This document shows positions 6,951 to 52,312 of a stretch of 56,145 nucleotides of DNA, piece after piece. The first letter of the stretch is position 1. Every line of letters begins with the position of its first letter. Source of the stretch: a phage. The position numbers were made by a program, and so were the translations under genes. The stretch is taken from the sequence record PZ386950.1. One strand, given 5' to 3'. The notes beneath the pieces are model-generated. The model was not told the origin of the DNA. It did no database searches and saw nothing but the letters and a program-made list of their open reading frames with translations.

Positions 6951-7455
6951 TTACATGTTCCCCGTTGATCCAAACCCGCCATTACGCTGACTATCAACAT
7001 CTGGTAATTCTTCCACTTCAACCAGGTTAACAGGTTCGACACGTTCAACCATGAGCTGACAAACACGTTCACCGTCTGCGATAGTCTGTAATTTCTGCCC
7101 GTGGTTAGTCAGCGTAACGTAGTATTCTTCTTTGTAATCACGATCACCGATACCCACACAGTTGATTAGTGACAAACCGTGTTTAAGACTCATGCCGGAA
7201 CGTGGATAGAATTTAATGCAATATCCGCTATCAACTGACATTTTCAGACCAGTGGGGATCATAGCGCGGTCGCCGGGCCATAATGCGATTGTTCCTGCAA
7301 CAACCGGACGTTCCACTTTAGCGCCTGATTCTGTGAATATAGTTACCGATTCTTCCCACAGACAAGCACGAACGTCTAACCCTGCGCTGTCTGGTGTTGC
7401 CCGTGTCGGAAGTTCAGCGTGGGGTGTTAGTTTTTTTGATATACAGGTTAGTCAT
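6951..7455 (-). pseudogene. dut: dUTP diphosphatase interrupted by frameshift in A7 run
   Basis: all five dUTPase motifs present (AGLDVRA, PRSG, GIGDRDY, RVCQLMV, GGFGSTG); motif 1 lies upstream of the track ORF in a frame with no start codon; ATG at 7455 with RBS GAGGAA is in the +1 frame and joins after the A7 run at 7431-7437. Confidence 0.75.
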
Positions 7456-7489
7456 TGTTTGATTCCTCAGTGTGTTTCGTTCGTGACAA

Positions 7490-7531
7490 ATGTTAGTGTT
7501 ACTGCTTGCAATGTGTCAAGAATTATTTTAA
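7490..7531 (-). promoter_or_regulatory. sigma70-type promoter with UP element (copy 3)
   Basis: minus-strand TAAAATAATTCTTGACACATTGCA then about 17-18 bp and TAACAT-like -10. Confidence 0.55.
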
Positions 7532-7562
7532 ACTTCTGTCAACGTTAACCAATGAGGAACGA

Positions 7563-8222
7563 ATGATGTTTGAACATCCGTGGAACATACCTGCATATGA
7601 TGCTGAAAGTGAAAAACAATCACTTGACTATCGAATGTACGCACCAATTTTAAGAAATCCGTCACAAATTATGGAGAATGCTGATGACTTTGAAATCTTT
7701 GAAAAACGCCCTTGTGGTCCAGCAACACCTGTCAAAACAAAACTGTTAATGACACCGAAAGCCCGTGGTAATACTTACGAAGAATTCATTGCGACCGGGT
7801 GGAATGACGACCAGTTAGTCGAACATGGTTATGCTGTTCGTACTACAGACAAACGTTCCTGGTCACCAATGACCGTCGGAACTGAAACAATTACACCACC
7901 TTCAAACTGTCGGTGCACATTCACCCCTGTTCAACAACCATCAACAGCGTCTGACTTGCTGAAACAGGCTGAACAGCTACTGACAGAACGTGGTAAGCAG
8001 TATGACACGTCTGGTCAGGAACGTTCGTCAGCTAAAATCGTTGCTGCGTTTAACACAATTACCGGGCGCGACTTAACACCGGGTGAAGGGTGGTTGTTCC
8101 TGATGTTGTTAAAAGCGGTTCGTTTCTATTCCAACACTGAAACACCACATCGTGACAGTCTGGAAGACCTGATCAGCTATGCTGCATTACACGCAGAGGA
8201 ATATCTTAACGATGAACGGTGA
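7563..8222 (+). CDS. hypothetical protein with conserved 35-aa module and all-alpha C-terminal domain
   Basis: track ORF trimmed to ATG 7563 (RBS tgaggaa); contains TYEEFIATGWNDDQLVEHGYAV module shared with the SSB-like protein. Confidence 0.5.
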   Translation: MMFEHPWNIPAYDAESEKQSLDYRMYAPILRNPSQIMENADDFEIFEKRPCGPATPVKTKLLMTPKARGNTYEEFIATGWNDDQLVEHGYAVRTTDKRSWSPMTVGTETITPPSNCRCTFTPVQQPSTASDLLKQAEQLLTERGKQYDTSGQERSSAKIVAAFNTITGRDLTPGEGWLFLMLLKAVRFYSNTETPHRDSLEDLISYAALHAEEYLNDER

Positions 8223-17925: not shown

Positions 17926-19383
17926 ATGGCTGAATCAATTTTTAAATGTTCGCAAACACCTGCGGCTGATGTAAACGCAACACGACTCAGTGTAGCAAAA
18001 GTCTGTGAACCTGTTTCTGGTACACCCTGGACGGTTCAACAACCGAATGAAATCAGTTCTTATAGTGCTGATATTACAAAGACTCAACGCACACCGATCA
18101 GTACGGACCGATCTGCACGTAAAGGCACGGTAACTAACGTTGAAGTTGCACCGGGTTTTCAGACAGACCTGACACTTGATACGTTCCGCTACTGGGGTGA
18201 CGGATTCCTTTATAGTAAATGGGTCGGTGCTGGTGCAATTGATATTGACGTTACCAGTGTTGGCGCTGACGCTTATAACGTTACTACTCTTGATGCTGCG
18301 CTACCACAAGGCGCACTTGTTTATGCAACAGGTTTTACACTGGCTGCAAACAACGGTTTGAAAACAGTAGGTGCTGATAGTACCACTACTGCTATCAACG
18401 TGTCAGGGCTTACTGCTGAAGCGTTACCGCCTCCTGAAGCTCGTTTGTATCTCGTGGGTTATGTAGCAACGTCTGGTGATATCGCTGTTAACAGTAATGG
18501 TCAGTTGACGTCAACCACCCTGGATTTTTCCACACTGGGTTTAGTACCGGGCCAGTATATTTATATTGACGGTCTAACACAGCCCGTGACCAGTAAAATG
18601 GCCCGTGTGACTATGGTTGGTGATCATGTTCTGACTCTCGCTAACAGTGAATTCACCACTGAAGAAGGTACGGGTAAAACTGTACGTTTATTTGTTTCCA
18701 GTTTTGTTCGAAACGTTCCTGTTGACTCTGCAGAGTTCGTTAAAACCGAATACACAATGGAAGCACGTTACAACACGACACCTGTTATTTATGAATATGC
18801 GCGTGCTGTAGCTGCAAACCAGATGACGATCAACGCGCCGTTGACTGAAAAAATGACAATGGATTTGACGTTTGTCGCACAAGACTTGTCAGCACCGTCA
18901 GAAACCGCGTTACCGGGTTCCGGGTATATTGAATTCGTGGCTAACGAAGCGTACAACACCGTAACGAACCTGAACCGTGTACGACTGACCGGTATTGATG
19001 ATAGTGGCCTCAGTACGTTCCTGAAAGACGTTACTGTCACCGTGAATAATAACGTGTCAGGTGAAAACGTGCTGGGCGTGATGGGTGCTGCGTTTACTAA
19101 CATCGGTAACCTGGAAATCACGATGGAAACTGAAACGGTGATGACGGACGGTGCTGTATTGGCTGCGATCCGTAACAACGCAACAGTCAACTTCGAACTT
19201 GCCGGGGTAAACGGTGACGGTGCCATCGTGGTTAACATCCCCGCTATGACACTGGGTGATGGTTCCAAGAACCTTGCGACGGGCGAAAAAGTGAAAGTTA
19301 CTGTGTCCGGTAACGCCCACGAAGAAGAGTCAATTGGTTTTATGATTGGGTTTAGCTTGTTCCCGTACTTGCCTACAGCATGA
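17926..19383 (+). CDS. major tail protein
   Basis: 485-aa ORF upstream of chaperone and tape measure genes; strong terminator after it. Confidence 0.6.
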   Translation: MAESIFKCSQTPAADVNATRLSVAKVCEPVSGTPWTVQQPNEISSYSADITKTQRTPISTDRSARKGTVTNVEVAPGFQTDLTLDTFRYWGDGFLYSKWVGAGAIDIDVTSVGADAYNVTTLDAALPQGALVYATGFTLAANNGLKTVGADSTTTAINVSGLTAEALPPPEARLYLVGYVATSGDIAVNSNGQLTSTTLDFSTLGLVPGQYIYIDGLTQPVTSKMARVTMVGDHVLTLANSEFTTEEGTGKTVRLFVSSFVRNVPVDSAEFVKTEYTMEARYNTTPVIYEYARAVAANQMTINAPLTEKMTMDLTFVAQDLSAPSETALPGSGYIEFVANEAYNTVTNLNRVRLTGIDDSGLSTFLKDVTVTVNNNVSGENVLGVMGAAFTNIGNLEITMETETVMTDGAVLAAIRNNATVNFELAGVNGDGAIVVNIPAMTLGDGSKNLATGEKVKVTVSGNAHEEESIGFMIGFSLFPYLPTA

Positions 19384-19403
19384 CATGGTGGATGGTAGTG
19401 GTT

Positions 19404-19428
19404 GCCCGGTTAACGCCGGGCTTTTTTG
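19404..19428 (+). terminator. rho-independent terminator
   Basis: stem gcccgg-ttaacg-ccgggc followed by tttttt. Confidence 0.7.
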
Positions 19429-19488
19429 TTGCGTAATTTGTACAGAACTATTACTATCTAATCGTCTACTACATAAAAGGTAAAAACC

Positions 19489-19911
19489 ATGTCAAAGTTT
19501 GACCATCTGAAAAAAGCACTTTCTCCACTGGTGCTGAAGTCTTCTGCTGAACTGATTTTAAATGAAAATTTCAGTATCACCGTGTTGAACCTGAACACCG
19601 CTAACCAGGTATATAACGTAACAGTCGCGGACTATGTAAAACAGAACGGTGTGTTGTCTGAAAACTTCTTTGAAAAACTGTGGAGTCAGGAATATACACC
19701 AGAAGGTGTTAAGTTCGTGGCTAACGTTCTTATGCTGGACTGGAAACTGATTGGTGAAGATGACAAACCGGAACCATTCAGTGTCGAAGAAGCTATTGAA
19801 CTGTTAAGTGATGAACGTTTCGGTCAGGTGATCTACAGTCGTGTTATTCAGTTCGCAATTAATTCCGCATTCTTCAAGGACGAATGGGAAAAACAGATTG
19901 AAAAAAACTGA
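19489..19911 (+). CDS. tail assembly chaperone (G-like)
   Basis: 140-aa ORF directly upstream of tape measure gene, ends at slippery A_AAA_AAC. Confidence 0.7.
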   Translation: MSKFDHLKKALSPLVLKSSAELILNENFSITVLNLNTANQVYNVTVADYVKQNGVLSENFFEKLWSQEYTPEGVKFVANVLMLDWKLIGEDDKPEPFSVEEAIELLSDERFGQVIYSRVIQFAINSAFFKDEWEKQIEKN

Positions 19912-20207
19912 TTGACTTCCTCTTGTGGAACGATAAGACAGACGGGGACGACCTGGACTGGGTTACACAAGGGGCGGTTGCACGTGGTATATCTGTTCCG
20001 GTTGTTGTACAGAAACGTCCTAAACTGCGACCTGATGCTGTTTTTTACTGGAATGCTTTTTTGGATTTGATAGGTGCTGATTGGGTTGCTTGTGAGCGTT
20101 ATGCACGGGTGTATAACGTTGATGTACAATTCTTGTGGAAATTATTGATAGCATTGCGGTCTGCACGTGTTGCCGAGATGAAGAAAAATAAACATAAGCC
20201 CGGTTAG
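19489..20207 (+). CDS. tail assembly chaperone frameshift product (GT-like)
   Basis: -1 slip at A_AAA_AAC (19902-19908) continues into the 19923..20207 frame (KKLIDFLLWNDKTDG...). Confidence 0.6.
19902..19908 (+). other. programmed -1 ribosomal frameshift slippery heptamer
   Basis: A_AAA_AAC immediately before the stop codon of the chaperone ORF. Confidence 0.6.
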
Positions 20208-20221
20208 TTCCGGGCTTTTTC
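20197..20221 (+). terminator. rho-independent terminator
   Basis: stem agcccgg-ttagtt-ccgggct followed by ttttt. Confidence 0.6.
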
Positions 20222-20278
20222 ATATCTCGTGGTTAACGTGTTAAACTATATACATGCTTCACGAAAAGGTTAACCAAC

Positions 20279-23194
20279 ATGGCACAATATCCTATTGATA
20301 TTAAGATTGACACCGGTTCGGCTGACCGCAATCTTAATAACCTTAACAGTCAGTTAGATCAGACTGAAAAATCAACCATAGCTGCTGCACAGGCTGCTAA
20401 TCAGTTATCTGAGGCTGAACAGCAGGTTGCAAAAGCAGCACAGCAACTGGCACAGCAACAAGCTAATCAGGCTGCGCGTACTATAGCAACTGCTCGCGCT
20501 ACTCGTGAAGCGGCAACAGCACAACTACAGCTTGAAAAATCACTTTCTGCATCTACTGACAACTTTCATGTTATTGCACGTTTACAGGCGCAAGTTAAAC
20601 AAGCTACTGAAGCTGAAACAAAAGCTACAGAACAATTAAAAAACAGTCTTAAACAACTTGTACCTGAACAGAAAAAAGTCATAGAAAATACTAAGCAGGT
20701 AGAAACCAGCACTAACAAAACAACAGGCGCTCTTGAAACACTTGTCACTGGTGCAAAAGCGTTTGTCGGTTTACAGATTGCAGGATCGCTTTACGACTGG
20801 GGTAAAGCCTTTGTAGATACTGCAACGAAAGTCGAACTGCTACAAAGTCGTATCAATCTGTACACATCAACGTCTGTCGAATCACAACAGATATTTGCGC
20901 AATTAGTACAACAAGCTAACCGTGCTGGTACAGATATTGACGCTGTGGCAAACAGTTTTCAGCGTTTTGCCGCTGCTGGTAAAGATGCCGGGATTAGTAA
21001 TCAGGTTATTTTACAGTTTACCGACAACCTGCAAAAAATGGCCCGTGTATCTGGTGCATCCAGTGCTGAAGCATCTGCGGCTATTTATCAATTATCACAG
21101 GCATTTGCATCTGGTCGTTTGCAGGGTGATGAATTCCGATCTGTGTCAGAACAGTTACCAACTGTTCTTCAGGTGCTGGCTAAACAGATGGGTGTCACCA
21201 CGGGGGAACTTAAACATTTAGGTTCTGATGGTGAAATTACCCGTGATAAACTGTTGTTGTTAAACAACGCGACTGATGAAATCAGCGCACAGTTCGATAA
21301 ACTTCCTCGTTCTGTAGATCAGTCTGCCACTGCGTTACGTAACAACCTGTCTGTGGCTATTGCTGAACTCGATCAGCAGATTGGCGCATCTAAATTCCTG
21401 GCTAAATTCCTGGACCTGTTAGCAGGTGGTGTATCGGGTACAACAGAGTTAATAAAAGCCGCTGCAGGTGCTGACAAACTGGCACAAGCCACTAACAATC
21501 TGAACAGTGTTACCGCAAAACGTGAAGCCAATCTGAAAGAAATTGCAGATCTGGAAGCACAAATTCAGCGTGGGTATACAACACAGTCAATTGGTGGGTA
21601 TACAAAATTTGTTGGTGACACCAGTGCTGCACAGAAGAAATTAAACGAACTTAAAAAACTTGATGTTCAGTTAACAAAACAACAAGCAGAAGCACAACGA
21701 GGGGTTGTTCAGGCTACTCCGTTGGGTAAGGGTGTTGCTGAAAATCTTGCAAATCAGGCAAGCACTTTACAGGCGAGTATTACGGCTGCTCAGGCTGCCG
21801 GACGTCCTGATGCCGAATCTGCAAAACAGATTAAAAATCTGAAAGAACAGATCACCTATACCCAGGCGCTTGCTGACGGTAACTATGAACTGGCAGCAAG
21901 TCAGAAACTGGGTAATAAAGCAACGAAGGAACAGATTGCAGACTACGCCGCGTTGTTGAAACAACAGGCAGAATATAAAGAAAATCAAAAGAACCAGAAG
22001 AAATCAGCCAGTGCTGAAGCATCTGCTGCTAAACGTGCACAGAAAGAACTGGAACGTAATCAGGCTGCTAACCAGAAATACCTGAAAACGCTTCAGGATA
22101 AAATCAATGCTGGTAATTATGATGTTCAGTTAGCACGCGAACAGGTTCAGATTGCTTTAACACAGGGGTCGTCTGTTGAACAACTTACAGCAACGTATCA
22201 GAAAGAATATCAGGTACGTCAACAGTTAACGCTGGCATCACAACAGGCAGAAGCACAATCACGACTGAATAAAGACGCGACTGATGCTGAACGTGCCGCT
22301 GTTGATGCACATGTGGCTGCATTGCAACGACAACAGCAGATAGCACAGTTAAGCGCAGATGTAAAACAAGTTGACATTGATGTGAAAGCACAGTTGAACC
22401 CGTATCAATCACAAATTGATCAGGTTAATCAACAGGAAGCAACACGTCTTAGTATTATTCAAACTGCCCGTGAACAAGATTTAATCAACGAGCAACAATA
22501 CCAGGATATGAAAACGCAGATTCAACAGGCTGGGGAACAAGCCCGTACGAATCTTGCAAACGCTAACTACAGCTTGTTGCTACAATCCAGTGCTGATTTT
22601 TTGGGTCAAATGGCTGCTGGTCTGGCACAATCTAAAGGTGAGCAATCAAACGCGTATAAAGCGATGTTTGCACTGTCTAAAGCCTTTAGTATCGCACAGG
22701 CAAGCATTAACCTGTGGACAGCAGTTAGCCAGGCTATGGCGTTGCCGTTCCCGGCGAATATTCCGTTCATTGCACAGGCTTTGTCATATGGAACAAGCGT
22801 GTTAGGTAATATTCAGTCTGTGGCTGCAACAGGTTTTGCAACGGGTGGTTATGTTAAAGGTCCGGGTACAGGTCAGAGTGACAGTATAAACGCACGTTTG
22901 AGTAATGGTGAGTTTGTCAGTACCAAACAGGCTACCAGTCGTTATCGTAGCACTCTGGAAGCAATGAATCGTGGGACATATACCCCCGGATCTGAAGGTG
23001 GTTCATCACCTAATATTCAGGTTCATAACTACGGTGGTGAACGTGTTCAGGTGAAACAAGGATTAACACGGGATGACGTAGTGCTTATCATAGGTGAAGA
23101 ATTCCCACGACAATCAGCGGCACAATGGAATGACCCGTACAGTCAGACAAATAAAGCGTTCAGGTCTAACTATGATGCGAACAGGAAAATATAA
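20279..23194 (+). CDS. tail tape measure protein
   Basis: 971 aa, long Q/A/K-rich coiled-coil N-terminal two thirds, location after chaperone pair. Confidence 0.85.
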   Translation: MAQYPIDIKIDTGSADRNLNNLNSQLDQTEKSTIAAAQAANQLSEAEQQVAKAAQQLAQQQANQAARTIATARATREAATAQLQLEKSLSASTDNFHVIARLQAQVKQATEAETKATEQLKNSLKQLVPEQKKVIENTKQVETSTNKTTGALETLVTGAKAFVGLQIAGSLYDWGKAFVDTATKVELLQSRINLYTSTSVESQQIFAQLVQQANRAGTDIDAVANSFQRFAAAGKDAGISNQVILQFTDNLQKMARVSGASSAEASAAIYQLSQAFASGRLQGDEFRSVSEQLPTVLQVLAKQMGVTTGELKHLGSDGEITRDKLLLLNNATDEISAQFDKLPRSVDQSATALRNNLSVAIAELDQQIGASKFLAKFLDLLAGGVSGTTELIKAAAGADKLAQATNNLNSVTAKREANLKEIADLEAQIQRGYTTQSIGGYTKFVGDTSAAQKKLNELKKLDVQLTKQQAEAQRGVVQATPLGKGVAENLANQASTLQASITAAQAAGRPDAESAKQIKNLKEQITYTQALADGNYELAASQKLGNKATKEQIADYAALLKQQAEYKENQKNQKKSASAEASAAKRAQKELERNQAANQKYLKTLQDKINAGNYDVQLAREQVQIALTQGSSVEQLTATYQKEYQVRQQLTLASQQAEAQSRLNKDATDAERAAVDAHVAALQRQQQIAQLSADVKQVDIDVKAQLNPYQSQIDQVNQQEATRLSIIQTAREQDLINEQQYQDMKTQIQQAGEQARTNLANANYSLLLQSSADFLGQMAAGLAQSKGEQSNAYKAMFALSKAFSIAQASINLWTAVSQAMALPFPANIPFIAQALSYGTSVLGNIQSVAATGFATGGYVKGPGTGQSDSINARLSNGEFVSTKQATSRYRSTLEAMNRGTYTPGSEGGSSPNIQVHNYGGERVQVKQGLTRDDVVLIIGEEFPRQSAAQWNDPYSQTNKAFRSNYDANRKI

Positions 23195-52010: not shown

Positions 52011-52108
52011 CGCCGGAAACCGTTTGCGTTTTCGATAAACAGGATAGAGTAGTGCAAGTGTACTGATAAGGGTATTAAGTTCGTCATAGAGCGTTTTAGA
52101 AAGCCCGG

Positions 52109-52312
52109 TTAATTCCGGGCGATATTCTGGAAGTGAACGTAAATCCCAGGCGTACCATCGACAGCTAATTTTTCAAAATCGAATGGTTGTGGTTTTCCGT
52201 TGTCGTCGAAAACTTTTTCAGACTTTTGGTTTACCAGATAACATTTGCCAACAGTAAATAGTTCGCGGTAACGGTCTGCAATTTTTGTAAAACCTGAACA
52301 CTTAACAATCAT
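52109..52312 (-). CDS. hypothetical small protein
   Basis: ATG 52312 with RBS GAGGG. Confidence 0.4.
   Translation of the reverse strand: MIVKCSGFTKIADRYRELFTVGKCYLVNQKSEKVFDDNGKPQPFDFEKLAVDGTPGIYVHFQNIARN

Follow-up and report, generated by a model that had tools for sequence, protein, structure and literature searches.

A probable programmed −1 ribosomal frameshift of the lambda G/GT type at an A_AAA_AAC heptamer in the tail assembly chaperone locus of a 9NA/Sasha-like phage

Between the genes for the major tail tube protein and the tape measure protein, the window (the whole 56,145-nt stretch of phage DNA that was analysed, record PZ386950.1) carries two overlapping reading frames on the plus strand, which we call G and T. 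The upstream neighbour, at 17926–19383 on the plus strand, encodes the 485-aa major tail tube protein, so named in relatives and matching Pfam PF18906 (Phage_tube_2, E = 1.6e-17) and phrog_290. The downstream neighbour, at 20279–23194 on the same strand, encodes the 971-aa tape measure protein (Pfam PF20155, TMP_3, E = 7.9e-53; phrog_1107, E = 7.7e-187). G, a tail assembly chaperone ORF, starts at the ATG at 19489 and ends at 19911, its standard 0-frame product being a protein of 140 aa, and the T segment (19908–20207) follows in the −1 frame. The order of tube gene, G, T (19489–20207 together) and tape measure gene is the placement seen in G/GT-type chaperones with a programmed −1 frameshift, the class from which we took our criteria of membership (Xu, Hendrix & Duda 2004), and it bears out the proposal of an earlier note, made from the letters of the window, that a G/GT arrangement lies upstream of the tape measure gene.

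Judged by its sequence relatives, the source of the window is a 9NA/Sasha-like siphophage of E. coli. Its closest relative is Escherichia phage PDP46, with 97% identity over 97% of window positions 8000–32000; PDP46 has been described as a plasmid-dependent phage that targets E. coli with a conjugative plasmid, and its tail fibre is reported to be divergent (PMC12137930). The G/GT region is 95–97% identical to those of Escherichia phages PDP46, AVIO78A and Bas82 and of Salmonella phages Sasha, Sergei and Solent, and about 81% identical to that of Salmonella phage 9NA. The genera of these near relatives are Sashavirus and Nonanavirus.

The 3′ end of the G ORF reads ...CAG ATT GAA AAA AAC TGA and contains the predicted site of the shift, the slippery heptamer A_AAA_AAC, at 19902–19908 on the plus strand. 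The heptamer is in the X_XXY_YYZ phase, with AAA at 19903–19905 and AAC at 19906–19908, and the 0-frame TGA stop (19909–19911) adjoins it directly on the 3′ side, so that the heptamer does stand immediately before the stop of the G-like ORF, as had been noted earlier. Directly 5′ of it lies a TGA of the −1 frame (19899–19901), the 5′ limit of a productive shift. Between these two stops the 0 and −1 frames are jointly open only over the seven nucleotides of the heptamer, and a productive shift could therefore occur nowhere else. From C19908 the −1 frame continues for 99 sense codons, from CTG to GGT (20202–20204), and then meets TAG at 20205–20207 in the loop of a terminator-like hairpin. The claim that this frame runs 98 codons to a terminator hairpin was thus right as to where it ends and one codon short in its count.

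Taken within the window, the heptamer and the open frame behind it are not unusual. A_AAA_AAC is not enriched (21 copies against 26 expected), and a long −1 extension beyond the stop is a frequent feature, seen in 19 of 78 ORFs and mostly running into the next gene. An in-phase X_XXY_YYZ heptamer (Y = A or T) within the last 10 codons is found in only 2 of the 78 ORFs of at least 100 aa. The second of these is T_TTA_AAC at 7527–7533, in the ORF at 7216–7548, after which the −1 frame is open for 225 codons. Since the gene that follows this ORF has its own GAGGAA and an ATG at about 7564, we regard this second heptamer as probably a coincidence.

The assignment of G as a tail assembly chaperone is carried by synteny and by family annotation. 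G matches phrog_8233, a family of 271 positions annotated as 'tail assembly chaperone', with E = 2.4e-47, and also phrog_313 (E = 4.8e-18). Pfam PF27119 (Phage_YdaY) is precomputed for 21 of 23 homologs. A local Pfam search with G gave no family at the cut-off and two matches at chance level (E about 0.05–0.09), an NCBIfam search gave no match, and a PDB sequence search with a G-family profile returned nothing at E up to 10; by sequence, G has no detectable similarity to any protein with a solved structure. An AlphaFold model of G, built on an alignment of 22 sequences, has a pLDDT of 83.5 and a pTM of 0.78. Foldseek comparison of this model with BFVD gave 16 matches at E up to 1e-3, several of which are annotated as tail or tape-measure chaperones and come from unrelated phages. 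The model suggests that G likely belongs to the tail assembly chaperone fold, for which the HK97 tail assembly chaperone (PDB 2OB9) is the named comparison system.

The evidence that we consider decisive against a chance occurrence of the heptamer is the comparison among relatives. It covered 27 sequences: the window itself, 13 loci from GenBank phages, 11 from IMG/VR and two Logan contigs, a set that takes in Klebsiella, Morganella, Proteus and Vibrio phages. Every one of the 27 has A_AAA_AAC in the same phase where G ends, even the phages of Morganella, Proteus and Vibrio, in which T shares no more than 34–46% identity with that of the window. The IMG/VR scan used two patterns, one of them ending in 'xKN', so the 11 loci from this source are partly biased towards Lys-Asn; the other 15 relatives are free of this bias, the GenBank loci having been found through T homology and the Logan loci through G homology. 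Ahead of the lysine stands Glu, Thr, Val or Ile, but in every case encoded by a codon with A in third position (GAA, ACA, GTA, ATA), for which the joint probability is about 0.007 from these four A-ending codons alone, with the codon usage of the window as a rough proxy. The lysine of the heptamer is always AAA and the asparagine always AAC, despite synonymous sites that are saturated between lineages (dS 1.2–1.9). Together, these codon details speak for selection acting on the nucleotide sequence as such. In the enterobacterial relatives and in VpaJT_1, a Vibrio phage, the 0-frame stop follows the heptamer directly; in the Morganella, Proteus and Vibrio lentus-type relatives one codon stands between the two. 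Adjacency of the stop to the heptamer is therefore not a requirement.

The same change of frame could in principle be made during transcription. RNA polymerase adding one A within the run at 19901–19907, which is seven A long in the window, would produce some mRNAs that encode GT in a single frame, and one inserted A is equivalent in frame to a −1 ribosomal shift. Efficient transcriptional slippage in bacteria, however, uses runs of about 9 or more, and no conserved A/T run of about 9 nt or more is found here: besides the A7 of the window, the run is only A6 in many relatives, namely the Klebsiella, Morganella, Proteus and Vibrio phages, in which CAC, CGT or AAT precedes AAAAAAC. The conserved unit is the 7-nt X_XXY_YYZ pattern including its terminal C, and not the length of the run. 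Frameshifted products that arise by transcriptional slippage on A/T runs are documented in bacteria, IS elements included (PMC5009743), but the A6C motif of IS1 is classed as a case of proven ribosomal frameshifting (PMC4066793). On balance we consider slippage by the polymerase improbable at this locus.

T might instead be translated alone, from the TTG at 19923, as a separate protein of 94 aa without any frameshift. A mechanically produced ORF list indeed contains 19923–20207, in the −1 frame relative to G, with this TTG as its start, and a separate downstream CDS is annotated in the records of Bas82, Kpn BU9, Isfahan and the Vibrio phages. These separate CDSs, however, begin at differing, non-homologous positions. 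At the position of the TTG, 9NA has CTG and the Klebsiella phages have CAG, and the T frame of 9NA contains no ATG, GTG or TTG anywhere. The sequence 5′ of the TTG in the window (AACTGATTGACTTCCTC) has no purine-rich Shine-Dalgarno element. Furthermore, the homology of T starts ahead of the TTG: a tblastn search with T found homologs in 95 phage records, down to 34% identity, with alignments starting at residue 1 of T, the first codon after the heptamer, and the five residues LIDFL between the heptamer and the TTG are conserved as protein. The T frame is thus without a conserved start codon or ribosome-binding site of its own, as in G/GT pairs. Independent initiation from this TTG had been named in the earlier note as what would overturn the frameshift reading; the relatives contradict it, and we hold separate translation of T to be very unlikely.

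Read in the −1 frame, the T segment is under purifying selection. In a comparison of eight enterobacterial sequences, its first, second and third codon positions hold 31, 22 and 61 variable sites, and its dN/dS in the −1 frame (0.10–0.22) is similar to that of G (0.03–0.12). The length of T is kept at 86–101 aa in every relative. The phrog_8233 profile covers both parts, G aligning to positions 5–140 and T to positions 141–250 (E = 1.1e-29), and is contiguous over the junction; a match of T to Pfam PF23812 (Phage_TAC_18) was below threshold (E = 2.7e-4). The dN/dS values, the 95 tblastn records and the match to phrog_8233 positions 141–250 show that the downstream segment is coding in the shifted frame. 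Two minus-strand ORFs that lie over T (19848–20129 and 20020–20223) were rejected as coding, because their third positions correspond to positions 1 and 2 of the T frame, which are the less variable ones. That the −1 frame is an opening by chance or a decayed remnant, with G the only functional product, finds some support in the frequency of long −1 extensions in this genome and in the lack of genome-wide enrichment of the heptamer, but is the least credible of the readings considered and can practically be set aside, given the purifying selection on T, its homologs at as little as 34% identity, its matches to tail-chaperone profiles and its constant length.

Programmed −1 ribosomal frameshifting of the lambda G/GT type at A_AAA_AAC is, from the comparative sequence evidence, the probable explanation of the locus; we put its probability at roughly 0.93. 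Most ribosomes would translate 19489–19908 and stop at the TGA at 19909–19911, releasing the 140-aa G. In a minority, the tRNA-Lys and tRNA-Asn paired with AAA AAC would slip back by one base in tandem and re-pair on AAA AAA; these ribosomes would then read CTG from 19908 and continue for 99 codons to the TAG at 20205–20207, yielding a fusion, GT, of 239 aa (predicted join 19489..19908, 19908..20207, plus strand); T would be made solely as the C-terminal portion of this fusion. No tRNA gene lies in the 56,145 nt of the window, and host tRNAs would therefore be used at the heptamer. Tandem slippage of the two tRNAs is the mechanism with the best support, and it predicts the junction ...QIEKN|LIDFLL... 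and the junction peptide QIEKNLIDFLLWNDK. Slippage in the P site only, with an empty A site, would instead give the junction peptide QIEKKLIDFLLWNDK, as in the GenBank joins of relatives, which re-read the A equivalent to 19905 (...EKKL...), whereas tandem slippage predicts ...EKNL... at this point.

From lambda we infer the two protein products, their ratio and their binding partners: the G part present in both proteins would coat the tape measure protein, and the T part would recruit the major tail tube protein (PMC5009743). A fixed, low ratio of GT to G would, again as in lambda, be set by an intrinsically weak heptamer. In lambda this ratio is about 1:30, and in E. coli A_AAA_AAC is much less shifty than A_AAA_AAG (PMC5009743), so the weakness of the heptamer fits a low ratio as in lambda. 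A_AAA_AAC is also the proven low-efficiency −1 site of IS1 in E. coli, which has no established stimulator (PMC4066793). The insA-insB′ pair of IS1 shares with the window an identical heptamer and the same host; its product is a transposase and that of the window a tail chaperone, and with the proteins unrelated the analogy is one of mechanism only. For the 9NA-like clade itself, the literature searched, which did not take in the 9NA-like genomics paper (PMC6819911), yielded no protein, ribosome-profiling or reporter data.

We looked for elements that might stimulate the shift. The fold of 19909–20010, downstream of the heptamer, is no better than those of shuffled sequences (z = −0.12). Folding of the alignment of the enterobacterial clade gave a hairpin in which one base pair is compensatory and another is broken, and a family-wide alignment of nine sequences gave no consensus structure. 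On these three results a downstream stimulatory RNA structure was rejected as an established component. Its lack is weak as evidence against frameshifting, because lambda G/GT and IS1 also have no known stimulator.

Upstream of the heptamer, a Shine-Dalgarno-like purine stretch is present at a distance of 6–12 nt in all relatives examined (equivalent to 19880–19901 of the window). Strong forms of it, with duplex energies from −7.3 to −10.2 kcal/mol (1st percentile of background or lower), occur in 9NA, the Klebsiella phages, Henu15, VpaJT_1 and a further relative, L025; those of Henu15, VpaJT_1 and L025 are within the top 0.1%. The clade of the window has the weakest, a GGGA at 19886–19889 on the plus strand, 12 nt upstream of the heptamer, whose duplex with the anti-Shine-Dalgarno sequence (−4.2 kcal/mol) is at the 10th percentile of the window background; it is a possible, unproven stimulator. 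The stretch coincides with conserved Trp-Glu codons (Trp-Glu-Glu/Asp), and its signal is confounded by coding: it could be a dnaX-like stimulator, or a mere by-product of these conserved codons. A doubtful extension is that the rate of frameshifting in this phage family is tuned by the Shine-Dalgarno-like stretch together with the placing of the 0-frame stop, next to the heptamer or a codon beyond it. The GT:G ratio would in that case differ from clade to clade, with the IS1-type heptamer itself unchanged.

The slip site of lambda is G_GGA_AAG, where that of the window is A_AAA_AAC, with the 0-frame stop abutting the heptamer. The lambda gpG/gpGT pair resembles what is seen or predicted for the window in having two overlapping ORFs, placed after the major tail gene and ahead of the tape measure gene, a −1 heptamer near the end of G, no need of a known stimulatory structure, and a low level of the fusion. 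The sources for lambda, cited in PMC5009743, are Levin, Hendrix & Casjens (1993) and Xu, Hendrix & Duda (2004, 2013, 2014).

At the level of annotation the frameshift feature is already known. A joined 'tail assembly chaperone' CDS is present at the orthologous position in the GenBank records of AVIO78A, Sasha and 9NA, with the notes 'frameshift product', 'ribosomal slippage' and 'translated with −1 frameshift'. The proteins concerned (9NA gp48/gp49, Sasha gp44/gp45 and AVIO78A_058/059) are orthologs of those of the window, with 88–97% identity for G and 82–95% for T, and the heptamer, its phase and the neighbouring genes are the same in all three. The joined region of the window, 719 nt, matches in length the joined CDS annotated in the Sasha clade; in 9NA, T has 90 aa. 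In contrast, the joined GT CDS is absent from the records of Bas82, PJ16, Carvaje, Kpn BU9, Isfahan and the Vibrio phages, which have G alone, or G and an arbitrarily started downstream ORF. Such ORFs in T are CDS0082/0083 of Kpn BU9, the second 'chaperone' of Isfahan and the 'tail chaperonin' of the Vibrio phages. Given the heptamer conserved in their sequences, we regard the missing joins and the arbitrary ORFs as annotation errors that this heptamer allows to be corrected, and the comparative data justify correcting the public records that have no join. The main use of the present analysis is accordingly in annotation: GT is to be given as join 19489..19908, 19908..20207, and the 94-aa TTG ORF not as a separate gene. 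As to biology, it adds nothing new to the established G/GT paradigm.

Terminator-like hairpins flank the locus. The first, GCCCGGTTAACGCCGGGC followed by a T-run, lies at 19404–19421 on the plus strand after the tube gene and is annotated as a terminator in Sasha and AVIO78A. The second, AAGCCCGGTTAGTTCCGGGCTT at 20196–20217, has 8 bp, 6 of them GC, followed by TTTTT in a T-run that extends to about 20222; it scored as terminator-like on both strands, holds the T stop codon in its loop as described above, and is annotated as a terminator in Sasha. It is absent in 9NA and in the Klebsiella relatives. Both belong to a set of three copies of one terminator hairpin in the window, GCCCGGTTA-NNN-CCGGGC with a T-run, at 19404–19421, 20198–20215 and 52103–52120, where none would be expected by chance. 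Two of the three copies bracket G/GT, which is thus a gene between two near-identical terminators, and transcription into G/GT and the tape measure gene may be attenuated stepwise. An Rfam search found no element; its only match, below threshold, was to Trp_leader at 20114–20223 (25.9 bits against a gathering score of 41, E = 0.009). This match overlaps the terminator hairpin and is most likely a chance resemblance of the hairpin and its U-run.

The intergenic stretches beside the two hairpins, 19384–19488 and 20208–20278, are hotspots of insertion in relatives (compared in L001, L002, L006, L007 and L025). The window has no cargo gene at either site, in which it differs from relatives that carry minus-strand cargo genes beside G/GT. 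Between the tube gene and G, such minus-strand cargo is represented by Sasha gp43 (207 aa), AVIO78A_057 and Bas82_0044. Between GT and the tape measure gene, Bas82 carries an endonuclease and a superinfection immunity protein, PJ16 carries PJ16_055/056, and L025 carries a T5orf172/DUF723 gene.
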